NCBI GenBank assembly: GCA_029203145.1 | Contig: CP119309.1 | Location: 1,386,472 to 1,450,471, forward strand | DNA: 64,000 bases | Reading direction: 5' to 3' | Source of the DNA: Candidatus Brevundimonas phytovorans | Lineage (GTDB): Bacteria > Pseudomonadota > Alphaproteobacteria > Caulobacterales > Caulobacteraceae | Shown: positions 17,450 to 59,304 of the stretch, piece by piece | Layout of the letters: every line of letters starts with the position of its first letter | Numbering within the stretch: the stretch's first letter is position 1 | Translations under genes and position numbers: made by a program | The notes under the pieces: generated by a model | Databases searched by the model: none | What the model was told of the DNA's origin: nothing | What the model saw: only the letters and a program-made list of their open reading frames with translations

Positions 17450-18229
17450 ATGTCTGATCTGCCGTCCGTTCTGATCACCGGCGCTTCAAGCGGTATCGGC
17501 GCCGCCTACGCCGACCGCTTTGCCCGCCGCGGGCACGATCTGGTGCTTGTCGCTCGGGACGCGGCGCGAATGGAGACGCTAGCCGCGACGCTGCGGGCCG
17601 AAACCGGTGTCTCGATCGAAATTCGGAAGGCTGACCTCACGCATGGCCCGGATCTCGAAACGGTCTCCAGCCGCCTGCGCCAGGATGATCGGATCGGGGT
17701 GCTGGTCAACAATGCCGGCGCCAGCATCGGCGGCCAGTTCGCCAATCAATCCGGCGCCGACCTCCAGAAGCTTATCGCCCTGAACGTGTCAGCGGTGGTC
17801 GAACTCGCCAACGCCGCCGCGCCGCGCTTCGCTCGGGAAGGGCGGGGGGCCATCGTCAACATCGGCTCCGTCGTCGGCCTCGCGCCTGAGTTCGGCCTGT
17901 CGATCTATGGCGCGACCAAGGCCTTCGTCCTCTATCTGTCCCAAGGGCTCGCTATCGAACTCACCCCCAAGGGCGTCTATGTTCAGGCGGTCCTACCCGC
18001 CGGAACCCGAACCGAGATATGGGAACGGTCGGGCGCCGACCCCGAAAAGCTGCCGCCGCTTATGGAGGTTGCCGAGTTGGTGGACGCCGCACTGGTCGGT
18101 TTCGACCGGCGGGAGCCGGTCACCATCCCGCCGCTTCAGAACGCCGCCCTGTGGGACGCCTTCCAAGGCGCCCGCCAGGCCATGCTGCCCGGCTTCGCCG
18201 CCACCGTGCCCGCCGACCGCTACCGCTAA
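17450..18229 (+). CDS. Short-chain dehydrogenase/reductase
   Basis: TGASSGIG, LVNNAG, S...YGATK. Confidence 0.93.
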   Translation: MSDLPSVLITGASSGIGAAYADRFARRGHDLVLVARDAARMETLAATLRAETGVSIEIRKADLTHGPDLETVSSRLRQDDRIGVLVNNAGASIGGQFANQSGADLQKLIALNVSAVVELANAAAPRFAREGRGAIVNIGSVVGLAPEFGLSIYGATKAFVLYLSQGLAIELTPKGVYVQAVLPAGTRTEIWERSGADPEKLPPLMEVAELVDAALVGFDRREPVTIPPLQNAALWDAFQGARQAMLPGFAATVPADRYR

Positions 18230-18280
18230 CCCTCCTGACGCCCTTCCCGTCACAGACCCTGTGAGAGATCAGAGATCCCC

Positions 18281-19372
18281 ATGCCCGACACCAGCCTGTT
18301 CGCCCCCTACGCCCTCGGTCCCATCACACTGTCCAACCGGATCGTCATGGCGCCCCTGACGCGCAACCGGGCCGGACCGGGCTTCGTGCCCGGCGACCTC
18401 GCCGTGGACTATTATCGCCAGCGCGCCACGGCCGGGCTGATTATCACAGAAGCAGCGCAGATCTCTCAACAGGGCCAGGGATATCAGGACACCCCCGGCA
18501 TCTATGACGCAGCCCAGATCGAGGGCTGGCGCAGGGTGACTGAGGCCGTTCACGCCGAGGGCGGGCGCATCTTTATCCAGCTCTGGCACGTCGGGCGCAT
18601 CTCGCACATTGACCTTCAGCCCGGCGGCGCGGCGCCTGTCGGGCCGTCCGCCATCCGGGCCGCGACCAAGACCTTCGTCAACAACGGTTTCGTCGATGTG
18701 TCGGAGCCTCGTGCGCTTGAGCTTGAAGAGATCCCCGGCATCGTCCAGGACTTCCGCCGGGCCGCAGCGAATGCGATCTCGGCCGGGTTCGACGGCGTCG
18801 AGATCCACGGCGCCAACGGCTATCTTCTGGACCAGTTCGCCAAGGACGGCGCCAATGTCCGCACGGACTCCTATGGCGGATCGGTCGAAAATCGCGCGCG
18901 TCTGATGCTGGAGGTCGCCGCCGCCGTCGCCGAGGAGATCGGGGCTGATCGCACAGGCATCCGGCTTTCGCCCGCATCCCCCGCCAACGCCATCTCGTCC
19001 AGCGACCCGCAATCCCAGTTCGACTACATCGTCGATCAGTTGAATGCGCTCGGGCTGGTCTACATCCACGTAGTCGAGGGCGCGACCGGCGGCCCCCGCG
19101 ACGACGCCGCCTTTGACTACGGTTCGCTGCGCCGGCGCTTCGCCAACACCTACATCGCCAACAACGGCTACGACCGGACGCTCGCCGAGACACGACTGGA
19201 CGCCGGAGAGGCCGATCTGTTCGCCTTTGGCCGCCCATTCATCGCCAATCCCGACCTGGTGGAACGGCTGAAGACCGGCGGGCCCCTGGCCGATCTCAAC
19301 CCGGCGACCCTCTACGGCGGCGGCGCCGAGGGCTACACCGACTATCCCGCCCTCGACGCGGCTCGCCAATAA
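18281..19372 (+). CDS. nemA: Old Yellow Enzyme / alkene reductase
   Basis: MAPLTRNRA, QLWHVGRISH, EIHGANGYLLDQF, FGRPFIANPDL, YTDYP. Confidence 0.92.
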   Translation: MPDTSLFAPYALGPITLSNRIVMAPLTRNRAGPGFVPGDLAVDYYRQRATAGLIITEAAQISQQGQGYQDTPGIYDAAQIEGWRRVTEAVHAEGGRIFIQLWHVGRISHIDLQPGGAAPVGPSAIRAATKTFVNNGFVDVSEPRALELEEIPGIVQDFRRAAANAISAGFDGVEIHGANGYLLDQFAKDGANVRTDSYGGSVENRARLMLEVAAAVAEEIGADRTGIRLSPASPANAISSSDPQSQFDYIVDQLNALGLVYIHVVEGATGGPRDDAAFDYGSLRRRFANTYIANNGYDRTLAETRLDAGEADLFAFGRPFIANPDLVERLKTGGPLADLNPATLYGGGAEGYTDYPALDAARQ

Positions 19373-19404
19373 GCGACAGACGACCTGCGGAACGGAGATC
19401 CCCG

Positions 19405-20418
19405 ATGAAGGCCTATATCCTCGACCGCTACGCCAGGAAGGCCGTTCTGCGTCTGGGCGAGCTGCCCGAGCCTGCGCTGCGTGAAAACGACGTCCTGATC
19501 GAAGTGCATGCTGCGGGTCTGAACCTGCTCGACTCCAAGATTCGGGACGGCGAATTCAAAGCCATCCTGCCCTATCGACCGCCCCTGGTGCTCGGTCACG
19601 ACGTGGCGGGCAAGGTCGTTCGCGTCGGATCTGGCGCAAGGCGGTTCAAGCTCGGCGACGCCGTCTACGCCCGCCCTCGTGACGGCCGGATCGGGACCTT
19701 CGCCGAGTTCATCGCGGTCGACGAAGCCGATGCGGCGCCAAAGCCCGTCAACCTGACCATGGAGGAAGCGGCCGGCCTCCCCCTGGTCGCCCTGACGGCC
19801 TGGCAGGTCCTGGTCGAGCGCGCCGGGCTGAGCCCAGGCCAGAAGGTTCTGATCCATGCGGGTTCGGGCGGCGTCGGGGTCTTCGCCATCCAGTTGGCCA
19901 AACACCTCGGCGCGGCGGTCGCCACGACCGCCAGCGCCGCCAACGCCGAACTGGTCCGCAGCCTGGGGGCCGATGTCGTCATCGACTACAGGACCCAGGA
20001 TTTCGCCCGCGAACTGTCGGGCTACGATGTCGTGCTGAACAGCCTGGACGGCGAGACGCTGGAGCGCTCTCTGAATGTCCTGAAACCCGGCGGCAAGCTG
20101 ATCTCGATCTCGGGGCCGCCGGACCCCGCCTTCGCCAAGGCCCAGGGCCTGAACCCGATCCTCAAGCTGATCATAGGTCTTCTGAGCCGCAAGATCAGAC
20201 ACAAGGCCGCCGCGAAGGGGATCGACTATTCCTTCCTGTTCATGCGTGCGGGCGGCGAACAGCTGCGGCGGATCACCGCCCTGATCGAAGCCGGCGACAT
20301 CCGGCCGGTGCTGGATCGCACCTTTGCCTTCGCCGACCTGAACGCCGCCCTCGCCTACCTCGAGACCGGCCGGGCCAAGGGCAAGGTCGTGGTCACTCTC
20401 AAAGAGGATGCGCAATAA
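19405..20418 (+). CDS. NADP-dependent MDR oxidoreductase (quinone reductase-like)
   Basis: LGHDVAG, LIHAGSGGVG, RAKGKVVV. Confidence 0.9.
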   Translation: MKAYILDRYARKAVLRLGELPEPALRENDVLIEVHAAGLNLLDSKIRDGEFKAILPYRPPLVLGHDVAGKVVRVGSGARRFKLGDAVYARPRDGRIGTFAEFIAVDEADAAPKPVNLTMEEAAGLPLVALTAWQVLVERAGLSPGQKVLIHAGSGGVGVFAIQLAKHLGAAVATTASAANAELVRSLGADVVIDYRTQDFARELSGYDVVLNSLDGETLERSLNVLKPGGKLISISGPPDPAFAKAQGLNPILKLIIGLLSRKIRHKAAAKGIDYSFLFMRAGGEQLRRITALIEAGDIRPVLDRTFAFADLNAALAYLETGRAKGKVVVTLKEDAQ

Positions 20419-20462: not shown

Positions 20463-20825
20463 CTAGTCGGAGACCGCCCGCGGATCGTGGGTGCTGAGCA
20501 GATCATCGATGTCCGCCTGAGCCAGGCCCTGACCGCGCAGGGCGGGACCGTTTTCAAGCTTGACCACGCCTGAGGCTGGTAGGCTAGCAGGTGAGATGGC
20601 GCCGCTGAGTTGCGTCAAACGCTGGCCGATCACGTCTTCAAAGGCGCACAGTTCCAACAGCCCCAGGAGACGACCCTCCAGCCGGCACAGCGCCGCGTCA
20701 TCGCCGTCCCGAAACCTGGCGATGTCGTCCAAACCCGCCTCGTGGACCGCCAGAAGCGCCTCTGTCGCCGTCGCCAGCTCTTGCCGTATCTCGCTGACCA
20801 GGTCGGCGAAGGCGGCGGCCGCCAT
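20463..20825 (-). CDS. cheZ: Short alphaproteobacterial CheZ-like phosphatase
   Basis: CAFEDVIGQR (DxxxQ) and C-terminal NGPAL.GQGLAQADIDDLL; 1 nt downstream of cheY stop. Confidence 0.72.
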   Translation of the reverse strand: MAAAAFADLVSEIRQELATATEALLAVHEAGLDDIARFRDGDDAALCRLEGRLLGLLELCAFEDVIGQRLTQLSGAISPASLPASGVVKLENGPALRGQGLAQADIDDLLSTHDPRAVSD

Positions 20826-20826
20826 G

Positions 20827-21213
20827 TCAGAATTCCCCCAGCACGGCCGTCAGCTTCTGCTTCAGCACAGCGTGCGTGAAGGGCTTGATGATGTAGCTGT
20901 TCACGCCCGCTTGCCGGGCGGCGATGACGTTCTCGATCTTGGCCTCAGCCGTGACCAGCACGAAGGGCAAGGCCCTGGTTTTGGGCTCGGCGCGCACCGC
21001 CTTCAACAGTTCGAACCCCGTCATCGGCGCCATGTTCCAGTCGGACAGGACCAGTCCATATCCATTCGCGGCGATCATCGTCAGCGCCGTCGGCCCGTCC
21101 GTCGCCTCGTCCACATTCATGAAGCCGAGCTGGTTCAACAGCCCGCGCACGATCCGAACCATTGTCTTGTAGTCGTCAACAACCAGGATCTTCATCGATT
21201 TATCGACAGCCAT
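20827..21213 (-). CDS. cheY: Chemotaxis response regulator
   Basis: ILVVDD, LSDWNMAPM, VTAE, IKPF single-domain receiver. Confidence 0.93.
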   Translation of the reverse strand: MAVDKSMKILVVDDYKTMVRIVRGLLNQLGFMNVDEATDGPTALTMIAANGYGLVLSDWNMAPMTGFELLKAVRAEPKTRALPFVLVTAEAKIENVIAARQAGVNSYIIKPFTHAVLKQKLTAVLGEF

Positions 21214-21280
21214 GCCTTCCCCCAATCACCCTCCGTGACCCCAAAACAAGAACACCGATATTCTGAACAAATTCTGGACA

Positions 21281-21294
21281 TTGATTCAGATCAA
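21281..21294. promoter_or_regulatory. FNR/FixK-type box
   Basis: TTGAT-TCAG-ATCAA, exact match to TTGAT-N4-ATCAA, 68 nt upstream of cheY ATG. Confidence 0.7.
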
Positions 21295-21546
21295 AATGAC
21301 GAATTGAAGAATATAAAAATCAATAGTTACACCTAGAGCGTATATTTTTCATCGTAGTGCGCCACTACAAATACCAGAGGAGCCGTTTGATAGCGGTATT
21401 TTACACCGACTATATTTGGATAAATTATCGGAACCATCTTTCCACCTAGCGAAAACTCCGAATCTACAGATAACAGCGCCATCCCACGCATTCGTTCGCA
21501 TGGCGCCAGGCCCTACGGAACTGCGCCTCAACTATCAGGAGGGGCC

Positions 21547-24402
21547 GTGGACGAGATCTTGGGCGACTTCATCGCTGAGACCCGCGAGGGCCTAGAGGCG
21601 CTGGACAGCGAACTTGTGCGTTTCGAGCGTAATCCGCACGACCCCGAGCCCCTGGCCAGCGTCTTTCGCCTGATGCACACCATCAAGGGCGCGTGCGGCT
21701 TCATCGGCCTGGTGCGACTTCAAAGGATCGCCCACGCGGCGGAAGAGGTTCTAGGCGGTTTCCGCGACGGCTCTCTGATCGTGACCTCCGCCGCCGTCAC
21801 CACCATCCTGGAAGCCGTGGACGTGATCCGCGGCCTGATCGACGTTCTGGACGCAACGGGCCAAGAGCCGACCGGCGAGGACGGCGCGCTGATACATCGC
21901 CTCGAAGCGGCCTGCGTGGCCGTCGCGTCGGCCTCGCCGCCTCCGGCGACCTCAACCAGACCCCTGATCGAACGAATTGGCGGCGACGCTACACTGGACG
22001 CCGCCGCCGAGGCGGCCGCTGCGCGCCTGATGCGGTTGGCCCCGTTTGAGTCTCTGCTCGGCGCCGCCGACCCCATCCTGTTGCAGGCGGCCCTGTTGCA
22101 GGGCCTGCTGGGCGCCGCTCGCGGCAGCGAGGCCGCCACCCTGAGCCGGGCGCTGGAGGATATCGCCGAGATTCGCCTTGACGCCGAAATGCTGGACACC
22201 CTGTTCAGCGTAGTCGCGGCGGCGCTGGAGGCCTTGGACGCCTCGCCCGAGGACGTGGCGGAGTTGCGCATCCGCGCTCAGATCGGGACGAACGCCGCCG
22301 CACCGGCCTCGGCCCCGCCCGCGCCTGAAGACGTCGCGTTCGTCGCCGGCGTCGGCAAGTCCGCCGCCACCATCCGCATCAACGTCGAGGTGCTGGAACA
22401 GCTGATGCGCTCGGTCAGCGAACTGGTGCTGATCCGCAACCAGATGATCCAGACCCTGCGGCTGGAACCGGAAAGCCCCTTCAAAGGTCCGCTGCATCGC
22501 CTGAATCAAGTGACCAGCGAGATCCAGGAGAAGGTCATGGTCGCCCGGATGCAGCCGATCGGCGGCGCCTGGGCGAAGCTGCCGCGTCTGGTGCGCGATC
22601 TTGAGCAGGAACTCGGCAAGCGCATCGAACTGCATATGTCCGGTCAGGAGACTGAACTGGACCGACAGGTCATGGAGCTGATCCGCGACCCGCTGACCCA
22701 CATGATCCGCAACGCCGCCGATCACGGACTGGAAACCACGGAACAGCGCCGCGCCGCCGGCAAGTCCGAGGCGGGCCGCATCACCCTGGCCGCGCGCCAC
22801 GAAGGCGGGGCCATCGTCATCGAGGTGTCCGACGACGGGCGCGGCCTGTCGGTGTCGCGCCTGCGAGCCAAGGCGGTCTCTCTGGACCTGCTGACCGCCG
22901 CCGAAGCCGAGCAGATGAGCGACGCCGAGGCGATGCAACTGATCTTCCGCGCCGGTTTCTCGACGGCGTCCCAGGTCACCAGCGTCTCGGGCCGGGGCGT
23001 CGGCATGGACGTGGTGCGCTCCAACATCGAACAGATCGGCGGGGTGATCGAACTGAGATCCACCGAGGGTCAAGGCGCCTGTTTCACCGTCCGCATCCCC
23101 CTGACCCTGACCATCGTCTCGGCCCTGATCGTCGAGGCGGGCGGCGAGCGGTTCGCCCTGCCCCAGTCGTCGATCATCGAACTGGTCAGCGCCAGCGGCG
23201 CCTCGGGCCGCTGTATCGAACAGATCGAAGACGCGCCCGTCCTGCGGCTGCGCGAGCGCCTGTTGCCGCTGGTGTCGCTACAACGCCTGCTCAAGCTGGA
23301 CGACGAGGCCCCGCCCCAAACCCAGGGCAAGGCAGCCAACGAAACCTGCATCGTCGTCACCCATTTCGGAGCCAGCACCTTCGGCGTCATCGTCGACCGG
23401 GTCTTCGATATCGAGGAGATCGTGGTCAAGCCGGTGGCCGGGGTGCTGCGCCACCTCAACCTCTATTCCGGCGCGACCATCCTCGGCGACGGGGCGGTCA
23501 TCCTGATCCTGGACCCCAAGGGCACGGCGCGCACCGCCGGGGTCGATCAGATTTCCGGCCACCTGGCCGGGCTCGCCAGCGACGCCGCCCGCAAGGCCAA
23601 CGCCGCCCCGCCGCCGAAGGAGGAAGCCCTGCTCCTGTTCCGCGCCGCCGACGCGACCCTGCGCGCCGCCCCGCTGACCACCGTGTCCCGCATCGAAGAG
23701 GTCGAGGCCGCCCAGATCGAACAGGTCGAAGGCCGCGCCGTGCTTCAATACCGTGGACGGCTCATGCCGATCCTCGGCGCCGACGGTCGCGCGCCGGACT
23801 GGAGCGGCCCCGGTCGTCGCCCCCTGCTGGTCTTCGCGCGCGGCGATCAGGCCCTGGGCATGTTGATCGGCGAGATCGTCGACATCGTCGAGACCGCAGC
23901 CCAGCCCGAGATCAACAGCGCGGGCGGACTGACGCTGGGCAGCCTGATCGTCATGGACCAGGCCGCCGACCTGATCGACGTCGACGCCTATTGGCGGCGA
24001 GCCTTCGACGCCGCCGCGACGACGGAGGCCAGCCCATCCGGCGACGCCCTCTCCGCCCCCATCGCCGGCCTGAAACGTCTGCTGATCATAGACCCCAGCA
24101 CCTTCACCCAGTTGCTGCTGGGGCCGCTGCTGGCGCGCGCCGGCTATGTCGTGATCGTCGCCCCGGACGCCGAGGCGGCTCTGGCCCACCACGACGCCAA
24201 CGAGGTCTTCGACCTGATCCTAGCCGACCTTCAGCCCAGCCGCGCGCGCGAGTTCGCCCGGATTTTGGCCAGCGCCGAGCAGTGGCACGCCACGCCGCTT
24301 CTCAGCCTCAGCCTGCTGAACGGCGGCGGTCCCGCGCTGGACGCCACCCGACTGCTGGACGCCGTTTCCAGCGCCCTGACGCCCGAAAGCGCGGCGGCGT
24401 GA
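21547..24402 (+). CDS. cheA: Hybrid chemotaxis kinase: Hpt - globin-like insert - dimerization - HATPase - CheW - CheW - degenerate REC
   Basis: HTIKG, HMIRNAADHG, DDGRG, GFSTA, GRGVGMDVV; two CheW repeats; GTG start after AGGAGG. Confidence 0.95.
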   Translation: MDEILGDFIAETREGLEALDSELVRFERNPHDPEPLASVFRLMHTIKGACGFIGLVRLQRIAHAAEEVLGGFRDGSLIVTSAAVTTILEAVDVIRGLIDVLDATGQEPTGEDGALIHRLEAACVAVASASPPPATSTRPLIERIGGDATLDAAAEAAAARLMRLAPFESLLGAADPILLQAALLQGLLGAARGSEAATLSRALEDIAEIRLDAEMLDTLFSVVAAALEALDASPEDVAELRIRAQIGTNAAAPASAPPAPEDVAFVAGVGKSAATIRINVEVLEQLMRSVSELVLIRNQMIQTLRLEPESPFKGPLHRLNQVTSEIQEKVMVARMQPIGGAWAKLPRLVRDLEQELGKRIELHMSGQETELDRQVMELIRDPLTHMIRNAADHGLETTEQRRAAGKSEAGRITLAARHEGGAIVIEVSDDGRGLSVSRLRAKAVSLDLLTAAEAEQMSDAEAMQLIFRAGFSTASQVTSVSGRGVGMDVVRSNIEQIGGVIELRSTEGQGACFTVRIPLTLTIVSALIVEAGGERFALPQSSIIELVSASGASGRCIEQIEDAPVLRLRERLLPLVSLQRLLKLDDEAPPQTQGKAANETCIVVTHFGASTFGVIVDRVFDIEEIVVKPVAGVLRHLNLYSGATILGDGAVILILDPKGTARTAGVDQISGHLAGLASDAARKANAAPPPKEEALLLFRAADATLRAAPLTTVSRIEEVEAAQIEQVEGRAVLQYRGRLMPILGADGRAPDWSGPGRRPLLVFARGDQALGMLIGEIVDIVETAAQPEINSAGGLTLGSLIVMDQAADLIDVDAYWRRAFDAAATTEASPSGDALSAPIAGLKRLLIIDPSTFTQLLLGPLLARAGYVVIVAPDAEAALAHHDANEVFDLILADLQPSRAREFARILASAEQWHATPLLSLSLLNGGGPALDATRLLDAVSSALTPESAAA

Positions 24403-24923
24403 ACGCGCTCAACCCTACGACCGAGGCCGGGCTGGTCTCGGTCCAGATCGGCGGCCAGACCTTTGGCGTGCCGGTGCTGGAGGTGCAGGACGTGATCGCC
24501 GAGACCGCGATCAACCGCGTGCCCCTGGCCCCGCCCGAGATCGCCGGTTCGTTGAACCTGCGCGGCCGCATCGTCACCGCCATCGACATGCGCCGCCGCC
24601 TCGGCCTGCCGCCACAAGCCGAAGACCAAAGAGCCAGCGGCGTTTCGGTCATCGTCGAACAGGCCTCAGGCGAGCTCTACGCCCTGATGGTCGATGACGT
24701 CGGCGACGTGCTGTGGCTGCCGCCCTCGGCGCACGAGCCGACGCCGCCGACCCTGTCGCCCGCCTGGCGCGACCTGTGCGACGGCCTCTACCGGCTGAAA
24801 GATGACCTCATGCTGGTGCTGCGGACTGAGGCGGTCCTGACCCTGGCCCCGCCGCCTGTCGGCGACACCCCCGATACCCCTCGCCGCACGGCGGACCTTG
24901 TCACTCACGGAGACCGATCATGA
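24399..24923 (+). CDS. cheW: Chemotaxis coupling protein
   Basis: [36 protein letters not shown]; GTGA overlap with cheA stop. Confidence 0.92.
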
Positions 24924-26530
24924 CCAACGGAGCCACGGCGCGCAGCGCCCGTCCCCTCGCCCCTCGCAGCCTGGACCAGACCGCTCAGGCCTCGGCCGAA
25001 TGGACGCCCGACTTCCGGCAGTTGCTGGAAGACGCCCCGTTCAACGTCATGATCTGCGACCTGATCGACTTCCAGATCACCTATGCCAACAAGGCGACGC
25101 TGACGACGCTGCGATCGATTGAACACGTCCTGCCGATCCGGGCCGACGATCTGGTCGGCGCCTCGATCGACGTCTTCCACAAGGCCCCGGCGCATCAGCG
25201 CCGGATGCTGGCCGACCCGCGCAACCTGCCCCATCAAGCCACCATCGAGATCGGCGGCGAGTTCCTGGACCTGCTGGTCAGCGCCGTGCTGGATGACCAG
25301 GGCCGTTACGTCGCCGCCATGACGACCTGGTCGCTCCAGACCGAACGGGTCAAGGCCGAGCGCGACAACCAGCGCCTGCTGCAGATGCTGGACGACATGC
25401 CGCTCAACGTCATGCTGTGCGAGCCCGAAGAGCTGCGTCTGACCTATGTGAACCGCCGCTCCATCGAGACCCTGCGCCCGCTGCAACACCTGCTGCCGAT
25501 CCCGGTCGATCAGATGCTGGGCCAGTCCATCGACATCTTCCACAAGCACCCCGAGCATCAGCGCCGCATGCTGGCCGATCCGCGCAGCCTGCCGCACCGG
25601 GCCATGATCCAGTTGGGCGATCAGAAGCTGGACCTCAACATCGCCGCCGTGAAGAACCCCGAGGGGCGGATGACAGGCATGATGCTGACCTGGGGGGTCG
25701 TGACCGAACAGGCCCGCTTCATCGACCGGGTCAACGACTTCAGCCAGGACGTCGCCGGCGCCGCCGCCGCCCTCAGCACCATGGCCCAGGGCATGGCCGC
25801 CAGCGCCGAGGAGACCAACAGCCAGGCCTCAGCCGTCGCCGTCGCCTCGGACGAGGCCTCGTCCAACGTTCAGACCGTGGCTGCCGCCGCCGAAGAACTG
25901 TCAGCCTCGATCCAGGAGATCACCCGTCAGGTCGAGCAGTCCAGCAGCATCTCACGCCACGCGGTCGAGGAAGCCCTGTCCACCGACGAGACCATGCGCG
26001 GCCTGGCGGACTCAGCCGAGCGCGTCGGCGAGGTCGTCGGCCTGATCCAGGAGATCGCCGCCCAGACCAAGCTGCTGGCCCTGAACGCCACCATCGAGTC
26101 CGCTCGCGCGGGCGAGGCCGGCAAGGGCTTCGCCGTGGTCGCCTCGGAGGTGAAGAACCTGGCCGATCAGACGGCGCGCGCGACCAAGCAGATCGCCGAT
26201 CAGGTCAACTCGATCCAGAAGGCCAGCCACGCCGCCGTCAGCGCCATTGAAAGCATCCGCCGCACCATCGAACGCGCCAGCGAAGCCTCCTCGGCCATCG
26301 CCAGCGCGGTCGAGGAACAGGGCGCGGCCACGCAGGAGATCACCCGCAACGTCCAGGAAGCCGCCATGGGCACGCGTGAGGTCTCGTCCAACATCGTGGC
26401 CGTGACCGCCGCCGCCTCGGACAATGCTCAGGCGGCGACCGACATGCTGTCGGCCACGGCGGCCCTGACGGAAAAGGCGCGCGAACTCGACACCCTGCGC
26501 GCGGAGATCGAGTCCTTCATGCGCGGCTAG
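24920..26530 (+). CDS. Soluble chemoreceptor with two Aer2-like PAS domains
   Basis: No TM segments; [12 protein letters not shown] and [12 protein letters not shown] repeats; [31 protein letters not shown] hairpin tip. Confidence 0.93.
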
Positions 26531-26550
26531 GACATGGCCGCCCGCAGCGT

Positions 26551-27387
26551 TCAGACGGTGCGGGCGGCCTTGCCTGAGGCGCGGCGGAACAGCCCCGCCG
26601 CGCCGGGGGTCAGTTCAAAGGCGTCAGTCACGCCCAGCACCGTCTCGGCGCTGCCCAGAAACAGGCCGCCGTCCTCGGCCAGGGTCCGCGCCATGCGTTG
26701 CAGCACGGCCCGCTTCTGATCCACGTCGAAATAGATCAGGACATTGCGGCAGAAGACCACGTCGAACACGCCCGGCAGACTGTCGCTCAACAGGTTGTGC
26801 GGACGGAAACTGACCAGCGACCGCAAGTCGGGGCTGACGCGCCAGCCGTGCCCCTCGCGCAAAAACCAGCGATCGCGGCGCGCGTCGGTCAGCCCCCGAC
26901 GAACCTCGAAGTCGCTGTAGAGCCCCTCCTCCGCCTTCCTCAGGATCGGTCGCGACATGTCGGTGGCCACAACCTCCAGCCGCCACCCCGCCAGTTGAGC
27001 GCCCATCTCCTTCAACAGGATGGCGATGGAATAGGGCTCCTGACCGCTGGAACAGGCGGCGCACCAGATTCGCAGCGTCCGCGTCGCCGCCCGCGCCTCG
27101 ACCAGTTGCGGCAGGACCCGCCCGGCCAGCAGGTTGAACGGCGTGCCGTCGCGAAAAAAGAAGGATTCGTGCGTCGCCATCGCCTCGACGCAGCGAACCA
27201 GAAGCGGCTCCGCCGATGCCCCGCCGAGGCGCAACCGCTCCAGCAGCTGCGGCACGCCCGCCAGACCCTCGGCCCGCGCCAGCGGGGCCAAACGGCTCTC
27301 GACCAGATAGCCCTTGTGCGCGGTCAGAATCAGACCCGAACGGTCCTTCACCAGACGACAGAAGTGCTCGAAATCCGGCCCGGTCAC
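26551..27387 (-). CDS. cheR: Chemoreceptor methyltransferase
   Basis: FFRD, IWCAACSSGQEPYS, FCRNVLIYFD; GTG start overlapping cheB stop. Confidence 0.93.
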   Translation of the reverse strand: MTGPDFEHFCRLVKDRSGLILTAHKGYLVESRLAPLARAEGLAGVPQLLERLRLGGASAEPLLVRCVEAMATHESFFFRDGTPFNLLAGRVLPQLVEARAATRTLRIWCAACSSGQEPYSIAILLKEMGAQLAGWRLEVVATDMSRPILRKAEEGLYSDFEVRRGLTDARRDRWFLREGHGWRVSPDLRSLVSFRPHNLLSDSLPGVFDVVFCRNVLIYFDVDQKRAVLQRMARTLAEDGGLFLGSAETVLGVTDAFELTPGAAGLFRRASGKAARTV

Positions 27388-28445
27388 GCGGCGGTCTCCG
27401 TCACGCGTCTAAGCCAGGGCCCGATGTCGTCCAGCGGCAGAACCGCCTCGGCCAGCCCGGTCGCCGCCGCCGCCGCGGGCATGCCCCAGACGGCGCTGGT
27501 CGCCTGATCCTGGGTGATGAATCGCCCCCCGGCGCGCACCACCGCCTCGCAACCCAGCGCGCCGTCCGCACCCATGCCCGTCAGGATGGCCGCGAGCGCC
27601 CCGTCGCCATAGACGGCGGCCAGGCTTCGCAGCATGGGATCTACAGCCGGGCGACAGAAGTGCTCGGGCGCCCCTTGGTCCAGCCGGATGACGGGTGAGG
27701 TCGGACCATTCTCGAGCCGCATATGCCACCCCCCGGGCGCGACATAGATATGGCCAGGCCGTACCGGCTCGCCGTCCTTGCCCTCGACGCAGGGACGGCC
27801 CGCCGCACGTCCGATCTGCTCAGCCAGCAGCGTGGTGAAGGTCGCAGGCATGTGCTGCGTCACAAAGACAGGCTGCCACCCGACCCCGCCCTGCAAGGCC
27901 CGGAACAGGTTCAGCAAGGCGGGTGGCCCGCCGGTCGAAGCGCCGATCCCCAGAGCTCGCACCACAGGCCGGCGCGTGGGCGCATAGCGAGGCACGGAGG
28001 TCGGGCTCGAGGCGAGGCTCACGCGCGAAGGCCGACGCGTCGCCAACGCCTTCACCCGCGCGATCAGGTCGCGTCCGAACTCGGCGGCGGTGGCGATCCC
28101 CGCTTCAGGCTTGGCCACATAGTCGGCGGCGCCGATCCTCAAGGCCTCTAGACTGATCTCGGCGTTGCGGCGCGTCAGGGTCGAAACCATGATCACCTTG
28201 ACCGCCGGGTAGTCCACGACGATCCGCCTCAGCGCCGTCATCCCGTCCATGACCGGCATCTCGATGTCCAGCAGCACGACATCCGCTGCATGCTGGCGCA
28301 GTTCCTTCAGGGCCAACTCGCCGTTCGACGCCGCCGCCGCGACTTCAATCTGAGGCTCCGCCTCCAGCAGGCGCCGCAGGACACCGCGAACAACAGCTGA
28401 GTCGTCAACAATTATGACTTTAATCGCCTGTGAGGCGTTCATCAT
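27384..28445 (-). CDS. cheB: Chemoreceptor methylesterase (REC + esterase)
   Basis: VDDSAV, LDIEMP, GASTGG, QHMP, LTGMGADG. Confidence 0.95.
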   Translation of the reverse strand: MMNASQAIKVIIVDDSAVVRGVLRRLLEAEPQIEVAAAASNGELALKELRQHAADVVLLDIEMPVMDGMTALRRIVVDYPAVKVIMVSTLTRRNAEISLEALRIGAADYVAKPEAGIATAAEFGRDLIARVKALATRRPSRVSLASSPTSVPRYAPTRRPVVRALGIGASTGGPPALLNLFRALQGGVGWQPVFVTQHMPATFTTLLAEQIGRAAGRPCVEGKDGEPVRPGHIYVAPGGWHMRLENGPTSPVIRLDQGAPEHFCRPAVDPMLRSLAAVYGDGALAAILTGMGADGALGCEAVVRAGGRFITQDQATSAVWGMPAAAAATGLAEAVLPLDDIGPWLRRVTETAA

Positions 28446-28708
28446 TGCCTTCCCCCCAAGACATCGCCACTGAACGTTTCAAGAAAGCCGTTCATCTTTA
28501 ATTCGCTCGGCGCCTACAAAAAACTGCGGCAATGACTAAACGTCAAATAGTTATGAGGAAACTCGTAACGAAACGCGATCAGCATATGGGGAGATGGAAT
28601 CATCGGATAACTTACATCAGGTATGTAACAACATCAGAAATGCCTATTACAAACCTTTGTGGGCATTAATTTACACCCTGGGTGCAATCCGATTTCTTTA
28701 CGTAAACG

Positions 28709-29554
28709 ATGGCTTTCAATATTCTAATGCTTACAGGCGAGCAAATACGCGCCGCCCGCGCCCTTTCGCGGATCGAGCAAACCGAGCTGGCGCAAATTTC
28801 CGGCCTCAGCCTTGAGACCATCAAACGGCTGGAACGTCTCCGCGGGCCGGTAGACGCCAACGCCCGGACGCTGCGCGCGATCCAGGACGCCTTTGAAACC
28901 ATCGGGGTGCAGTTCGACGGCGACGACACCGGCAAGGTCGGCGTGCTGCTTCGCCCCATGCGACAAGCCGCCCTGCGCCCCTCCGGCCTTGCTGCCGAAC
29001 CGCAATCGACGCCGCATCTGCATCGGCTGATCTGCCATAGCCGGATCGCGAGACAGGGCGAGGAAAGCCTCCGGCCGGCCCTGACCGCCCTCCATGACGA
29101 AGCCCAGGCCCTTCACGCCGATCTCGGCGTCACCGGCATCATCTTCGCACGCGAGGGCCATCTGCTTCACGCCCTGGAGGGCGACAGGGAGGTCGTTCAT
29201 CAGGCCTATCGTGACATGGCCCGCTCCCCCCGACGCCAAGGCCTTCACCTGCTCGAAGATCGCGCCACCACCCGGCGTCAATTCCCGGAATTCAGCTTCT
29301 GCTGCGGCCTGTTCACGGAGGACCTCGATGTCATGGCCGGTGAAAAGGCGCTTCAGCGTGGGTTCAGTCCCGGCGACCTGACGCCGAACGCGGCCTCGGG
29401 CTTGCTGGGCATCGCCCGCGACCTTCAACAAACCGCGCCCCGCAACGCACGCGGAAACCCCCGCGCCTGCACCCTCGCCTCATCCTGCCTCGACACCACC
29501 TGCGGCCGCGGCCGGTCCGCGCCAACCCACGCCCTTGCCCCTCAGGCGCACTGA
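28709..29554 (+). CDS. XRE-family HTH fused to a degenerate BLUF-like domain with Cys-containing tail
   Basis: QIRAARAL...Q.ELA...GLS..TIKRLE HTH; LHRLICHS...LGVTGII...HALEG...RRQF BLUF pattern; start may be ATG 28727. Confidence 0.78.
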   Translation: MAFNILMLTGEQIRAARALSRIEQTELAQISGLSLETIKRLERLRGPVDANARTLRAIQDAFETIGVQFDGDDTGKVGVLLRPMRQAALRPSGLAAEPQSTPHLHRLICHSRIARQGEESLRPALTALHDEAQALHADLGVTGIIFAREGHLLHALEGDREVVHQAYRDMARSPRRQGLHLLEDRATTRRQFPEFSFCCGLFTEDLDVMAGEKALQRGFSPGDLTPNAASGLLGIARDLQQTAPRNARGNPRACTLASSCLDTTCGRGRSAPTHALAPQAH

Positions 29555-29734
29555 ATCGCCGCCCAGGATAAGGACGATGCCTTTTTGATGCAACGTAATG
29601 ATTTTACGGGAATAATTTTCTTACAATGAGAAAACGCCGATCTTGAATCGGCCAGTTTCTCGCTATGAAGGGATGGCAGGCGGCGTGCGCCGATCCACAC
29701 CCTTGAACAGAGACCGGCCGGGAAAATCCCAACC

Positions 29735-31405
29735 ATGAAGAGCTCCAATGGCGGCGAACAACCCAGCGCCAATGACTCCCGGTCGCGCTGGCGACATGCC
29801 CGCGACGCACTGAAAAAGACGTTGGCGGTTCAGGCCGGCCTTCCCGAAACCCTCGAGGACATCTTCAGCAGCATCCTGAACATCTCGTCCGAGGGGATCA
29901 TCGTCGCCGATCAGGACATGCGGATTCTGCTGTTCAGCAAGGGCGCGGAGGTCATCTTTGGCTATACCGCGCCTGAGATCCTGGGGCAGTCGATCGACCT
30001 GCTCATTCCGCACGACCGGCGTGAGGCCCACCAGCAGCGGGTTCAGGGTTTCGCCGCCGGCGCCATCCTGAGCCGACGCATGAGCAATCGCCAGGACGTG
30101 ACCGGTCTGACCAAGGACGGACGACTGGCGCCAATCGAGGTGGGCCTGTCCAAGACCACGACCCGCGGCGGGATGATCTACACCGCCATCATCCGCGACA
30201 TTTCCGAAAGCCTGCAGGCCGAGGCCGAACTGAACCAGGCGGTCAGCGAGGCCAATGCCGCCAACGCCGCCAAGTCCGCCTTCCTGGCCGCCATGAGCCA
30301 TGAGGTGCGCACCCCGTTGAACGGCGTCCTCGGCATGGCTCAGGCTATGGCGCGCGACCCTCTGCCGCCCAGGCAGGCCGAGCGCCTGGAGGTCATCCGC
30401 CAGTCGGCGGAGAGCCTGCTCGGCATCCTCAACGACATGCTGGACCTGTCCAAGATCGAGGCTGGCAAGCTGGAGATGGAGACTCTCGAGTTCGACCTCG
30501 ACGACCTGATGGCCGGGACTCACAACACCTTTTCCGCGTTGGCGGCGCAGAAGGGCCTGCAGTTCGACCTGCACGTCGCCCCTCGCGCCAGGGGCGCCTA
30601 TCTCGGCGATCCGCTAAGGCTGCGCCAAGTCCTGAACAACCTGATCTCGAATGCGATCAAGTTCACCGAACGAGGCCTGGTCCAGGTGGACGTGGATCGC
30701 CAGGACGCCCTGCTGATGATCTGCGTGCGGGATACGGGGATGGGCATTTCGCCCGACGCCCTCACGCGCCTGTTCAACAAGTTCGAGCAGGGCGATCTTT
30801 CGACGACGCGCCGTTTCGGGGGCACCGGCCTGGGTCTGGCCATCTGCCGGGATCTGGTCCGTCTGATGGGCGGCGACATATCGGCGGACAGTTCCCTCGA
30901 TGAAGGCGCGACCTTCACCGTTCAACTGCCGCTGGAACACGTCGGTCACGCCCCCGCCCTGCCCGACCTGGCCCGTACAACGGAGTCCGCCGAAGACGCC
31001 CGCCAGGTCCGCCTGCTGGTCGCAGAAGACAATCGCGCCAATCAACTGGTCATCGACACCCTGTTGCGGCAGGTCGGCATTGCCCCTGTCATTGTCGAGA
31101 ACGGGCGTGCGGCTGTCGCCGCCTGGGAGGATCGGCCCTGGGACCTCATTCTGATGGACGTCCAGATGCCGGAAATGGACGGCCCGACCGCGACCTCGAT
31201 CATCCGTCGCCGAGAACTGGACAACGGCCAGGCCCGCACGCCTATCCTGGCCCTGACGGCCAACGCCATGGATCACCAACTGCACGAGTATCGTCAGGCG
31301 GGCATGGACGGCCTGATCGCGAAGCCGATCGAAGTCGACAAGCTGTTCGCCGCCATTTCCCAGGCCATCAAGACCGGCGGCGTCACCGCCCAGGTTTCTC
31401 GCTGA
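29735..31405 (+). CDS. PAS-HisKA-HATPase-REC hybrid histidine kinase
   Basis: [34 protein letters not shown]...MDVQMP...TANA...KP. Confidence 0.93.
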
Positions 31406-31718
31406 AGTACTTCTCGAACTTGCCCGTTTCGCGCTCATAGACGGCGCGGTCAGCGGGCGGCTCGCCCTTCAGCGTGATATTGGGCCAGAGCCTGGCGTAG
31501 TCGGCGTTGATCTTCAGCCACTTCCCGTCGGGCTCGTCTTCCGTGTCCGGCTTGATGGCGTCCACCGGGCATTCCGGCTCGCAGACGCCGCAGTCGATGC
31601 AGTCGTCCGGCGAGATGACCAGGAAGTTCTCGCCCTCATAGAAGCAGTCGACAGGGCAGACTTCGACGCAGTCCATGAACTTGCATTTCACGCAGGCGTC
31701 GGTGACGAGATAGGTCAA
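31383..31718 (-). CDS. fdxA: 7Fe ferredoxin
   Basis: [17 protein letters not shown] and [12 protein letters not shown]; TTG start. Confidence 0.93.
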
Positions 31719-31744: not shown

Positions 31745-33595
31745 CTAGAGCCAGCCGCGTTCTGCAAGAAGTCGACGCACCGCATCGGCCGCTGAGGACG
31801 GCGACAACTGTTCGGTGGCCAAGGTCAGGTCCGGAGCGCTGGGCGCCTCATAGGGGGCGGCGATCCCGGTGAAGCTGGCGAGCGTCCCCGCAGACGCCTT
31901 GGCGTAGAGCCCCTTGGGATCACGCGCCTGGCAGCTTTCCAGCGAAGCGTCCACGAAGACCTCGACGAAGCGATGGTCGTCAAAGCGCGCCCGTACGGCC
32001 TCCCGGTCCGCCTGACGCGGTGAGATCAGGGCGCAGATGGCGATGACGCCCGTATCGGCGAACAGCCGCGCCGCCTCGCCGGTCCGCCGCACGTTCTCGG
32101 CCCGATCCTCGTCCGAAAAACCGAGATCGCGGTTCAACCCATGGCGCAGGTTGTCGCCGTCCAGCAGAACGGTGCGGCAGCCCTGCCCATGCAGGCTCTG
32201 CTGCAGGGCCTGGGCCACGGTAGACTTGCCCGCGCCGGACAGGCCCGTCAGCCACACCACGCCGCCACGATGGCCGTTCAGCAGTTCATGCGCTTCGCGT
32301 GAGACGGCGGCGGGGCTGTGATGAATATGGGCCGCCTGATCGGAGGCGCCGACGACCACGCCTGCCGCCACCGTGACGCCGGTCGCTCGGTCGATCAGGA
32401 CAAAAGCGCCCTGAGCCGGATCGTCTCGGAAGGCGTCCACGGCGACCGGCGACGGCAGGGCCAGGCGCCCGTCTGCTACCTCATTGGGCGCCAGACCGAC
32501 CGCGGCCTCCGCCAGCGTCAGACGTGCCGGCAGGGTGCGGGTGCCCAGCTTGACCTGATACCGCCGCGCCGGATCAAAGGGCCGATCCCCCATCCAAAGC
32601 AGTCGCACATCCAGCCGATCAGAGGCCGCCGGGCGGTCATCGGCAGGCGCCAGGACGTCGCCGCGCGCCACGTCCACATCCTCAGCCAGAACCAGGGTCA
32701 CGGCCTCGCCAGCCCGCGCCTCGGCCACATCGACATCGCCGGACAGGATGCGCGACACGGCCGCCGTCCGCCCGCTGGGGCAAACCGCCAGAGCGTCGCC
32801 GACCCTGATCTCGCCCGAGGCGATGGTTCCGGCGTAACCTCTGAAATCGGCATGAGGCCGGTTTACATACTGGACCGACAGGCGAAACGGCCGCGCAGCG
32901 CCGGTCTCGGCCACCGGCAGATCTTCCAGCGCTTCGATCAGACTAGGACCGTCGTACCAGGGCGTGGCGGCCGACCGCGCTGTCAGGTTGTCGCCCCGAC
33001 GCGCGCTGACCGGAATCGCCGTCACCGAGCGGAAGCCCAGATCCGCCACCAGATCGGCATAGGCGTCTCTGATACGCTCAAACGCCGAAGGATCGTCCGC
33101 GACCAGATCGATCTTGTTGACCGCCAGAATGACGTGGCGAATGCCGAACAGGGCGACGATGCGGCTGTGCCGCGCCGTCTGGGCCGTGACGCCCTTGACC
33201 GCATCGACCAGCACGACCGCCGCGTCGCAGGTCGAGGCGCCGGTGGCCATGTTGCGCGTATATTGCTCATGCCCCGGAGTATCGGCGACGATGAAGCTGC
33301 GGCGCGCCGTCGACATATAGCGATAGGCCACGTCGATGGTGATGCCCTGCTCGCGCTCGGCCTCCAGCCCGTCCAGCAGCAGGGCGTAATCCAGGTTGGT
33401 CCCGTCGGTGCCGAACCGGCGCGAATCGCGCTCCAGCGTCGCCAGCTGATCCTCGGGCACCTGCCCCGTCTCGAACAACAGCCGCCCGATCAGGGTCGAC
33501 TTGCCGTCGTCCACGGAGCCGCAGGTCAGGAAACGCAGCAGGTCGCGTTCCTCGCGCCGGGTTTTCGGCGGAAAGGCCGTCACGGCGCCGTCCAT
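31745..33595 (-). CDS. cysNC: Sulfate adenylyltransferase subunit 1 / APS kinase fusion
   Basis: [22 protein letters not shown]; C-terminal [21 protein letters not shown]; TGATG overlap with cysD. Confidence 0.93.
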
Positions 33596-34539
33596 CAGAA
33601 GTAGCCCTCGCGCTTCTTGCGCTCCATCGAGGCGGTCTCGTCGGCGTCGATCAGCCGTCCCTGACGCTCGGATTGCTTGGTGGCGCGCAGTTCGCGGATG
33701 ACGGCGTCCAGACTGTCCGCCTCGGACTCCACCGCCGCGCTCAACGGATAGCAACCCAGCGAGCGGAAGCGGACCCGCCGCAACTCAGGCGTCTCGCCCT
33801 CGCGCAACGGCAAACGCTCATCATCGCGGACGATCAGGGCGCCGTCGCGCACCACGACTGGTCGCAGAGCGGAGAAATACAGCGGCACGACAGGGATGCC
33901 CTCAGCCTGGGTGTATTCCCACACGTCCAGCTCGGTCCAGTTCGACAGGGGGAAGACGCGCAGGCTCTCGCCCGGCCCCAGGTTCGAGTTCCACAACCGC
34001 CACAGCTCCGGCCGCTGGCGACGCGGGTCCCAGCTGTGGTCCGCGCCCCGGAACGAGAAGATGCGCTCCTTGGCCCGCGACTTCTCCTCGTCGCGACGCG
34101 CGCCGCCTATGGCCACGTCAAAGCCATGCAGGTCCAGCGCCTGCTTCAGCGCATCCGTCTTCATCGCCTGGGTGTGGGCCGACGATCCCGAGGTGATCGG
34201 GCTGATCCCGCGCGCCAGCGCCTCATGATTGGTGTGGACCAGCAGCCGCGCGCCATAGAGGCCGGCCACATGATCGCGGTGGGTGATCATCTCGCGGAAC
34301 TTCCACGTCGTGTCGACGTGCAGAAGCGGGAACGGCGGCCGCCCCGGATAGAAGGCCTTGGCGGCCAGATGCAGCAGGACGCCGGAATCCTTGCCGATCG
34401 AATACATCATGACCGGGTTGCGCGCGGTCGCCGCCACCTCACGCAGGATTTCGATCGCCTCGGCCTCAAGCTGACGCAAATGCGGGGGCAGGACGCGACG
34501 CGCGGTGGCGTCTTTCTGCTTTTCGACGGTCGCCTGCAT
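33595..34539 (-). CDS. cysD: Sulfate adenylyltransferase subunit 2
   Basis: [36 protein letters not shown]. Confidence 0.96.
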
Positions 34540-34647
34540 AGGCTGCGGTCCTCACTGGTCGTCATGAACGAGGGATATTTGAAGCGTGGAGGGCCGGTCC
34601 GCGTCGAACGATATGATCTCGTGCCGGCCGATAGGAAATCTGCGGGG

Positions 34648-35472: not shown

Positions 35473-35572
35473 GACCGACCTCCTGCTTGAAGGCCTTCGA
35501 CATAGGGCGGGACGCGTCAGTCGAGGAAACGATCAATCCTGTTTTGACCGTGCAGAAAATCTGACGGCGGTG

Positions 35573-36502: not shown

Positions 36503-36632
36503 GCGCTTGTAGAAAACCTATCAGGGCGTCGAAGACAATCTGGTTTGTGGAAGGATCGTGCACGACGGATGCTGAATGTCGAGCCGCCACGCAATAGCGA
36601 AGGCGGAAGGCAGCAGATCATGGAATCGTCCG

Positions 36633-41050: not shown

Positions 41051-41108
41051 CGCTCTCTCTCCGTCCCATCCCCCGCTCCCATTACAAGACCTGAAGCAGA
41101 GACATCCC

Positions 41109-44882: not shown

Positions 44883-44883
44883 C

Positions 44884-56232: not shown

Positions 56233-56233
56233 T

Positions 56234-56632: not shown

Positions 56633-56642
56633 CGCTGCGTCC

Positions 56643-59300: not shown

Positions 59301-59304
<4 letters not shown>
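58282..59304 (-). CDS. sufD: Fe-S assembly protein SufD
   Basis: EAWKYSDL, GVFQGKI, KPEL.IYADDVQCAHG, FYMQQRGI. Confidence 0.92.

Follow-up and report, generated by a model that had tools for sequence, protein, structure and literature searches.

Within a stretch of 64,000 nucleotides from Candidatus Brevundimonas phytovorans (contig CP119309.1; the whole stretch is called the window below), positions 20463-31405 hold nine genes, which encode a chemotaxis pathway and two attached regulators. Taking the sequence evidence together, we lean towards reading this locus as a hypoxia-tuned aerotaxis (gas-taxis) pathway that acts on the flagellar motor and is built as a wholly cytoplasmic F5-type module. 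Every part is of a known kind (F5 pathway, Aer2-type PAS, FixL-type PAS, BLUF, CheZ, truncated haemoglobin and FixK box), and the module is an uncharacterised F5-type variant. As judged by comparison with related sequences, the locus is one divergent, mosaic copy of a Caulobacteraceae-wide module. The nine genes were recognised using the listing of open reading frames (ORFs), third-position G+C and Pfam, and are given here together with the domains and DNA motifs discussed below.

20463-20825, minus strand: short cheZ, 120 aa, recognised by profile and alignment evidence
20827-21213, minus strand: cheY, 128 aa from the ATG at 21213 (Pfam Response_reg 5e-25)
21281-21294, no strand: FNR/FixK-type box TTGATTCAGATCAA in the AT-rich spacer between the divergent cheY and cheA
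21547-24402, plus strand: cheA, 951 aa, with P1 (Hpt), globin-like domain, P3, P4, two P5 and a degenerate receiver
21958-22284, plus strand: truncated-haemoglobin-like domain of CheA, aa 138-246, at the position of P2
24073-24315, plus strand: degenerate receiver-like C-terminal domain of CheA, aa 843-923
24399-24923, plus strand: cheW (Pfam CheW 3e-28)
24920-26530, plus strand: soluble receptor gene, two PAS-haem domains and a hairpin (Pfam MCPsignal 9e-32)
26551-27387, minus strand: cheR methyltransferase (Pfam CheR 2e-57 and CheR_N)
27384-28445, minus strand: cheB methylesterase with receiver (Pfam CheB_methylest 3e-56 and Response_reg)
28550-28569, no strand: palindrome GTTATGA-N6-TCGTAAC in the AT-rich cheB/xre-bluf spacer, candidate operator
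28709-29554, plus strand: regulator with XRE-type helix-turn-helix (HTH), BLUF domain and Cys-rich tail, 281 aa (Pfam BLUF 2.5e-12, weak HTH_3)
29735-31405, plus strand: soluble hybrid kinase (Pfam PAS, HisKA, HATPase_c and Response_reg)

This content and order, with alternating transcription units, had been proposed in a preliminary description of the DNA and agrees with Pfam and coding bias. The AT-rich spacers it had pointed out were also recovered: the two divergent spacers have a G+C of 0.42 and 0.43 versus 0.65-0.72 inside the genes, and low G+C is limited to these conserved promoter spacers. No 19-residue stretch reaches transmembrane-level hydrophobicity in any of the nine proteins (the highest KD19 value of the receptor was 1.19), in line with the proposed cytoplasmic pathway lacking a transmembrane receptor. 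All nine reading frames are intact in the window copy.

F5-type kinase and soluble receptor

By Pfam, CheA consists of Hpt, H-kinase_dim, HATPase_c and CheW domains, the last of them present twice. The protein matched E. coli CheA in PDB at 2.6e-86 and was 89% identical to the CheA of B. bullata, and its second P5 (CheW) domain is conserved in the alignment of the CheA family. According to PMC10782961, 99% of F5-class CheAs carry duplicated CheW domains and nearly all CheAs with such a duplication are F5, including the enzymes of C. crescentus, Azospirillum and R. centenum. Because the CheW domains are duplicated in our protein, the pathway has an F5-like architecture, an assignment made from this duplication.

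The Hpt...CheW-CheW-REC layout suggested previously was recovered as to Hpt and the two CheW domains, but the terminal receiver (REC) is degenerate. Its Response_reg match reached 19.3 bits against a Pfam cut-off of 30.2 and covered only profile positions 2-51, and the matches of this region to receivers in PDB were weak. D849 and D894 are invariant, the phospho-acceptor Asp being kept. Neither the second acidic residue nor the conserved Lys is present, and for this reason the C-terminus is only partly a receiver. The region is homologous throughout the F5-like family.

The receptor carries two PAS-haem domains, located at approximately aa 33-150 and 152-263. Both aligned to the PAS-haem structures of P. 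aeruginosa Aer2 (3VOL, 4HI4) and V. cholerae Aer2 (6CEQ), and both keep the motif ID(V/I)FHKxPxHQR with the haem-ligand His as well as the Trp on the last strand, so the two Aer2-type PAS motifs that had been noticed from the letters were borne out by structures. In Aer2 PAS domains, this Trp stabilises bound O2. The top NCBIfam model for the receptor was the Vibrio Aer2 equivalog (1e-66, far under its cut-off). After PAS2 (which ends around aa 263) the signalling hairpin takes up all of aa 264-536, and Pfam found no HAMP domain in the protein. The hairpin has its tip at E399, arms of 135 and 137 aa and approximately 38 (38-39) heptads, as counted from the arm lengths. In the work of Alexander and Zhulin and of Wuichet and Zhulin, 38H is reportedly the receptor heptad class that matches F5. 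EE pairs at 325-326 and 465-466 resemble methylation sites. The C-terminal pentapeptide that tethers CheR is absent, the receptor ending with ESFMRG. As far as can be predicted from its residues, the receptor senses like Aer2, yet it stands outside the Aer2/F7 group as PMC7184735 defines it, because it has no HAMP, about 38 heptads and not 36, and no pentapeptide. With its B. bullata counterpart the receptor has 98% identity and a ratio of nonsynonymous to synonymous divergence (dN/dS) of 0.04, and CheW is 96% identical to the B. bullata orthologue.

Probable output through CheY and a half-length CheZ

The best PDB matches of CheY were the CheY proteins of E. coli and Salmonella (1e-42, approximately 60% identity), and the match to S. 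meliloti CheY2 was far weaker (1e-21). The residues D12, D13, D57, T87, Y106 and K109 are all kept and the gene has a dN/dS of 0.05-0.06.

The 120-aa protein encoded next to CheY had no match in Pfam (PF04344 included) or NCBIfam. A phmmer search of 1.8 billion representatives recovered around 60 small homologues and a set of proteins of 170-300 aa; all ten longer homologues tested exceeded the Pfam CheZ threshold. In an alignment with these Pfam-positive CheZ proteins, D64...G67-Q68-R69, corresponding to the D143/Q147 motif of CheZ, is invariant and so is the C-terminal CheY-binding peptide LNGP..G.Q..ID.L. The joint profile built from the family alignment matched E. coli CheZ (1KMI) at 4e-15. 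The protein covers just the C-terminal half of CheZ. Based on the active-site motif, the CheY-binding peptide and the profile match to 1KMI, it is a half-length CheZ and a predicted phosphatase of CheY-P.

Pathways directed to the motor typically pair CheY with CheZ. The combination of CheZ with a CheY of E. coli type favours the flagellar switch as the target, and flagellar control, that is aerotaxis, seems to be the likeliest output.

Palindromes in the divergent spacers

The cheY/cheA spacer contains TTGATTCAGATCAA, the sole TTGAT-N4-ATCAA in 64 kb, where 0.01 would be expected. This pattern is the canonical consensus site of FNR/FixK. Measured from its centre, the box is approximately 74 bp from the cheY ATG and 260 bp from the start of cheA, upstream of both; the former distance would fit a class II site for an activator, followed by a short leader. 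The half-sites occur in the same place in six other loci (L002, L003/L085, L082, L083, L086 and L089), of which L089 comes from a Brevundimonas of a different CheA lineage, and the four central bases vary among loci (GCAG, TTAA, ACAA, ACCG, CTAG). Half-sites that are kept while the spacer varies are the pattern expected of selection on the site of a dimeric regulator. The perfect FNR/FixK box reported previously thus stands, as a unique match retained in 7 of 8 related copies, and regulation by low O2 is predicted from this conserved motif. No box was found in the paralogous clusters L006 and L007 described below. A scan for sigma-70 promoters and terminators did not rise above the shuffled background, and gave one plausible -35/-10 pair at 21387-21416.

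Closer to cheA, the conserved block CGAATCTATAGATAACAGCGCCATTCCACGC lies at approximately 21461-21500, 50-90 bp upstream of the cheA start, and contains the palindrome ATCTATAGAT. We found no covariation support for an RNA structure in this leader block, and an Rfam scan of the island with E up to 1 gave no match.

The second divergent spacer, between cheB and xre-bluf, contains a palindrome of 7-6-7 arrangement, GTTAYGA-N6-TCGTAAC, which is conserved in the same spacer of the island-type loci. With at most two mismatches it was recovered in L003/L085 (16959, perfect), L082 (16999), L083 (16968), L084 (17023) and L086 (16909), and it is absent from L087-L089, which include the Caulobacter and Phenylobacterium copies. 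It may serve the XRE-BLUF regulator as an operator.

The two attached regulators

The BLUF domain of the XRE-BLUF regulator scored 47-48 bits against the Pfam PF04940 cut-off of 25. The AlphaFold (AF2) model of the protein had a pLDDT (predicted local distance difference test) of 83.5, and its top Foldseek matches were PixD, TePixD, AppA and BlrB. In the window allele, the photocycle Tyr and Gln (Y8 and Q50 of PixD) are replaced by C109 and H154. Approximately 160 homologues were recovered, all from Caulobacteraceae; among the 120 listed, Tyr is present in 109 and Gln in 83, and the photocycle Met is nearly never kept in the family. Since every close orthologue keeps both Tyr and Gln, the degenerate BLUF is, on this comparison, a strain-level event on a divergent allele. 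The cofactor-degenerate BLUF-like regulator of the preliminary description is accordingly right as to the BLUF fold and the loss of Tyr and Gln in this allele, but the loss is not shared by the close orthologues. The window protein is 64-66% identical to the alleles of B. bullata (L002) and Brevundimonas sp. NPDC090276 (L003), which are 92% identical to each other, and the neighbouring genes of the window are 83-98% identical to theirs. The dN/dS of the BLUF domain is moderately elevated (0.38 vs 0.14). We considered whether the gene is a pseudogene and rejected this, as the frame is intact, the HTH and all cysteines are kept and dN/dS is 0.3.

In the tail of the protein, C199, C254, C260 and C265 are invariant or nearly so across the family and C198 is mostly kept, giving the pattern CC...C-x5-C-x4-C; the window copy retains all the family cysteines. 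The invariance of the cysteines indicates a redox or metal input, and the motif would suit a redox site formed by a metal, Fe-S or a disulphide. The tail is reminiscent of the Cys-rich region of AppA.

The hybrid kinase is soluble, its HisKA/ATPase core is complete and its receiver canonical; Pfam found no Hpt domain in it. The best PDB matches of its PAS domain were the haem PAS domains of EcDOS/DosP and FixL (approximately 1e-12). H99 and R119 align with H77 and R97 of EcDOS, and H99 aligns also with H200 of BjFixL, from whose R220 R119 lies one alignment column away. Eight orthologues, drawn from three genera, all have the proximal His99 and the distal Arg119. These residues, together with the structural matches, uphold the earlier proposal of a FixL/DosP-like PAS. 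In FixL and DosP, the distal Arg discriminates O2. No fixJ, fixK or fixT was found near the kinase gene.

A globin fold inside CheA

The segment of CheA between P1 and P3 (aa 138-246) is conserved and starts with L-I-E-R-L-G-G-D-A-T-L-D-A-A-A-E. Its AlphaFold model, built from 74 family members, had a pLDDT of 85. When PDB was searched with this model using Foldseek, truncated haemoglobins filled the first nine places and the majority of the top 50, the remainder of the 50 being other globins save one designed protein of low probability. The Foldseek scores were high, with TM (template modelling) scores of 0.6-0.74 (target-normalised) and a probability of approximately 1.0. Pfam Bac_globin (PF01152) gave no match in the insert even up to E 10. 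Comparison of the insert profile by hhalign with the genuine Bac_globin domains found in modules of relatives gave a probability of 97.3% and E of 2e-11. The same alignment placed a conserved leucine (Leu203) at the position of the F8 His and Leu or Ala at that of the B10 Tyr, and no His of the insert is conserved across 120 homologues. With both residues replaced, canonical haem ligation is impossible in this domain.

The preliminary description had suggested a cofactor-degenerate, truncated-globin-like insert in CheA. Both the fold and the loss of the pocket were borne out, but the insert is not special to this locus, as CheA proteins throughout Caulobacteraceae have it, including the paralogues, and some Rhodospirillales show weak traces of it. 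Genuine Bac_globin domains are present in other proteins of related modules. In Phenylobacterium soli (L088), CheW (4165-5049) is fused to one and the receptor (5257-7647) begins with one, and in a Caulobacter metagenome-assembled genome (MAG; L087) the receptor (5763-7784) combines Bac_globin with an Aer2-type PAS. The B10 Tyr and F8 His are intact in the Bac_globin domains of both L087 and L088. Dual Aer2-type PAS domains fused to Globin or Bac_globin were observed also in metagenome proteins of Rhodospirillaceae and Planctomycetes (P0326, P0327, P0378, P0438), so the pairing of PAS-haem with globin is not limited to Caulobacteraceae. The search for dual-PAS homologues returned chiefly partial proteins and did not list the orthologues.

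One may speculate that the haem-less domain descends from a gas sensor and functions in input or docking, in which case the kinase itself would join in sensing or partner selection. We hold this for unlikely. If it were true, CheA would belong, with the fusions of truncated haemoglobin (trHb) to CheW and to the receptor, to a family of cytoplasmic arrays that are globin-wired, induced by hypoxia and under the control of a dedicated BLUF/Cys transcription factor for light and redox.

Distribution and divergence of the module

We found the same nine genes in the same order in ten or more loci, spread over the three genera Brevundimonas, Caulobacter and Phenylobacterium; all counts of module copies are lower bounds. 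This order is present in two strains of B. bullata, Brevundimonas sp. NPDC090276, B. naejangsanensis, Brevundimonas sp. NPDC046655 and a metagenome contig, and with two extra upstream genes in the Caulobacter MAG (L087), Phenylobacterium soli (L088) and another Brevundimonas (L089). The Brevundimonas loci are L002/L084, L003/L085, L082, L083, L086 and L089. CheA identities separate three Brevundimonas lineages, approximately 60% apart. A 15-kb contig from a decomposition metagenome is identical to the window. Co-conservation of the genes, on which the preliminary description had let its proposal depend, is seen in this shared order across three genera. Its picture of a singular island did not survive, given the same layout in Caulobacter sp., P. 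soli and other Brevundimonas and a paralogous core cluster in the same genomes.

The genes flanking the module vary among the genomes that bear it. A flagellin gene follows directly after it in P. soli and a GGDEF-EAL gene in Caulobacter sp. L087. In L083, a serine recombinase and DUF2924 adjoin the module (20657-22760), and in the metagenome contig L086 the hybrid kinase is split in two ORFs (18064-19712).

The paralogous cluster, cheY/cheA-cheW-mcp/cheR-cheB, was found in B. bullata (L006) and NPDC090276 (L007), the same genomes that carry the island type, and has no cheZ, bluf or hybrid kinase gene (hhk). By CheA identity it makes up one of the three Brevundimonas lineages. Its receptor has one Aer2-type PAS and a different PAS, and L007 contains a further cheR-cheB-cheY set approximately 7 kb upstream.

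Compared with B. bullata, the synonymous divergence (dS) is 0.22-0.33 in cheA-cheW-mcp-cheR and 0.54-0.85 in cheY, cheB, bluf and hhk. Such a mosaic indicates recombination inside the module. The dN/dS values of the eight genes tested range from 0.04 to 0.30, showing at the level of codon substitutions that the genes are under purifying selection.

Proposed mechanism and alternatives

We infer that O2 is the ligand, that the array is cytoplasmic, that induction depends on FixK and that the output lies at the motor, and these elements could work together as follows. At low O2, an activator of the FixK/FNR family, encoded elsewhere, would bind the box and turn on cheY-cheZ, and perhaps would drive also the divergent cheA-cheW-receptor operon. 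The soluble receptor, CheW and the two-P5 CheA would form a cytoplasmic array, in which O2 on the PAS haems would alter CheA autophosphorylation; another haem-binding gas, under oxygen limitation, could be the ligand instead. CheA-P would phosphorylate CheY and CheB and CheY-P would act on the flagellar switch, while the short CheZ would end the CheY-P signal and CheR and CheB would adapt the receptor at the EE sites. The globin-derived domain of CheA, with no His-based haem binding, may act as a docking or regulatory domain. The XRE-BLUF-Cys regulator and the haem-PAS hybrid kinase would set expression or cross-talk upon light/redox and O2, the light input being presumably lost in the window strain.

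Several points limit this mechanism or weigh against it. Haem binding by the domains of the module is predicted from key residues, and in a receptor without HAMP the coupling mechanism of Aer2 cannot simply be carried over. The 64-kb window holds no flagellar genes, the preliminary description having seen none in the pathway itself, and no FixK, FNR or FixJ genes. The box is degraded or lost in one B. bullata strain (L084, ~9729) and absent from the Caulobacter and Phenylobacterium copies, and its control of the cheA operon is uncertain because of the distance to cheA (~260 bp) and a sigma-70-like site approximately 100 bp past the box. Since one or more further clusters of the family are present in the same genomes, the copy may be accessory. 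Regarding RNA-seq, we found no isolate runs, just metatranscriptome or contaminant contigs. Near-identical contigs from a wastewater metatranscriptome cover cheA, receptor, cheR, cheB, bluf and hhk; they come without information on conditions and therefore show presence and say nothing on regulation.

The missing flagellar genes would suit also a chemotaxis-like pathway with a non-swimming output (adhesion, holdfast, biofilm or transcription), of which the XRE-BLUF regulator and the hybrid kinase would form a downstream or parallel arm. Outputs of this kind have been put forward for certain Che clusters of alphaproteobacteria. Both che operons of C. crescentus affect holdfast and biofilm (PMC10579534), the GGDEF-EAL gene stands after the module in Caulobacter sp. 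L087, and the module always comes with a transcription factor and a hybrid kinase. This type of output, suggested in the preliminary description, nevertheless appears unlikely to us, as CheY is approximately 60% identical to E. coli CheY and keeps the switch residues Y106, T87 and K109, cheY is co-transcribed with a CheZ that keeps its CheY-binding tail, which is a motor-type pairing, and a flagellin gene adjoins the module of P. soli. The paralogous cluster L006/L007 in the same genomes raises the other question of whether the module is a redundant, horizontally shuffled paralogue that drifts to loss of function and counts for little in the cell while the main cluster does the work. The flanks that differ by genome, the serine recombinase abutting the L083 module, the mosaic dS (0.22-0.33 vs 0.54-0.85), the loss of the BLUF Tyr and Gln in the window allele, the split hybrid kinase of L086 and the lost FixK box of L084 could all be understood in this way. 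We find such decay quite unlikely for genes with nine intact reading frames, dN/dS of 0.04-0.30, a receptor 98% identical to that of B. bullata, the third-codon G+C of the host genome, a conserved box and operator-like palindrome, and near-identical transcript contigs over most genes.

A haem PAS domain of the Aer2 or FixL/DosP type can bind several gases, and the PAS domains of the module could sense NO, CO or redox through haem or a non-haem ligand. In that case the palindrome would be bound by a CRP/FNR factor unrelated to oxygen, and the behaviour would be a metabolic or energy taxis. The invariant Cys motif of the XRE-BLUF regulator, which indicates redox or metal input, is compatible with this, and so are the further CRP-family regulators of the C. 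crescentus network, FtrA and FtrB (PMC3751524). However, the O2-stabilising Trp is kept in both receptor PAS domains, the O2-discriminating distal Arg is kept in the kinase PAS, and TTGAT-N4-ATCAA is the canonical FNR/FixK site, and we regard a ligand-shifted pathway of this sort as improbable.

Genomic surroundings

Upstream, the module is flanked by a TetR regulator, a short-chain dehydrogenase (SDR), an old-yellow-enzyme reductase (OYE) and a Zn-dehydrogenase (Zn-ADH), and downstream by ferredoxin, CysNC and CysD, followed by the remainder of the sulphate-assimilation cluster. This annotation agrees with the position between a reductase cassette and the cys cluster given in the preliminary description. 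The 3′ end of the hybrid kinase gene (31383-31405) shares 23 bp with the convergent ferredoxin ORF (31383-31718, minus strand). Two intervals, 31745-47309 and 55243-63344, make up a large sulphur/iron-sulphur block, which contains CysNC, CysD, a LysR regulator, sirohaem synthase, sulphite reductase and CysK, as well as the sulphate ABC transporter, methionine ABC ATPase, SufS and SufB/D. We considered also a foreign, horizontally acquired island, which is unlikely, as coding and third-position G+C equal those of the host.

Comparison with known systems

Our search of the literature recovered no description of the whole module, the globin-derived CheA domain or a trHb-CheW fusion, nor of the XRE-BLUF-Cys family or a short CheZ in Caulobacteraceae. 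The combination, which the preliminary description had taken as undescribed, is new in the sense that no account of it was found; each part, however, is of a known kind and the layout recurs in relatives. No O2 receptor has been assigned for the aerotaxis of Caulobacter (PMC10579534), and a 2026 review of aerotaxis receptors mentions neither Caulobacter nor the alphaproteobacteria as a group. The module gives a concrete candidate for such a receptor, namely a soluble dual haem-PAS protein within an F5 cluster.

The alphaproteobacterial F5 systems (Che1 of A. brasilense and of R. centenum, and those of Azorhizobium caulinodans and C. crescentus) share the Hpt, dimerisation, kinase and two CheW domains of CheA and, in degenerate form here, a receiver-like C-terminal domain. 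As in these systems, CheW, CheR, CheB and CheY are present; the receptor hairpin, of approximately 38 heptads by arm length, probably matches theirs. Unlike them, the module is split into divergent units, its CheA has a globin-derived linker and a degenerate receiver, and it includes a short CheZ, a soluble haem-PAS receptor and the attached XRE-BLUF regulator and haem-PAS hybrid kinase. CheZ is reported missing from C. crescentus (PMC10579534), the model species of the family in which the short CheZ exists. Compared with the CheZ of beta- and gammaproteobacteria, the short protein has the same D...Q motif and C-terminal CheY-binding peptide, but with 120 aa it is about half as long, the long helical hairpin being without its N-terminal half.

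The Aer2/F7 systems (Che2/Aer2-McpB of P. aeruginosa, cluster III of V. cholerae) have the same kind of soluble receptor within a cheY-cheA-cheW-receptor-cheR-cheB cluster. The haem motif IDxFHKNPxHQR and the distal Trp are shared with Aer2, and the V. cholerae receptor likewise has two PAS-haem domains. The module differs from the group as described in PMC7184735 in having no HAMP, approximately 38 heptads instead of 36H, a CheA of F5 and not F7 class and no pentapeptide; it also differs from Aer2/F7 clusters in having no genes for CheD, a McpA-like partner or an anti-sigma antagonist. It follows that the Aer2 sensing unit can join a different signalling class without HAMP. The hybrid kinase shares the PAS type with proximal His and distal Arg with FixL of the FixL-FixJ-FixK systems of Caulobacter and rhizobia and with DosP of E. 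coli, and the box has the same consensus. Different from FixL and DosP, the kinase is of the hybrid type, carrying a receiver of its own and a HisKA-HATPase-REC output, and no fixJ, fixK or fixT is nearby.

The CheA insert shares the 2-on-2 fold and detectable homology with truncated haemoglobins of group I (trHbN, Bac_globin), but it has lost the F8 His and B10 Tyr and sits in a kinase and not in a receptor. Classical globin-coupled sensors such as HemAT use a 3-on-3 sensor globin, as opposed to the truncated fold of the insert. The CheA survey of PMC10782961 does not mention globins and calls the linker unstructured where P2 is missing; our results indicate that linkers so described can conceal a folded, globin-derived domain. 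The XRE-BLUF regulator has the same PixD-like fold, including the C-terminal helices, as the BLUF photoreceptors PixD/Slr1694, TePixD, BlrB and AppA, and most members of its family keep the Tyr and Gln. Unlike these photoreceptors, it has an N-terminal XRE-type HTH, its Met is almost never kept, and Cys and His replace Tyr and Gln in the window allele. With its cysteines, it is a compact candidate integrator of light and redox at a chemotaxis locus. Set beside all these systems, the module extends current models of chemotaxis and does not overturn them.

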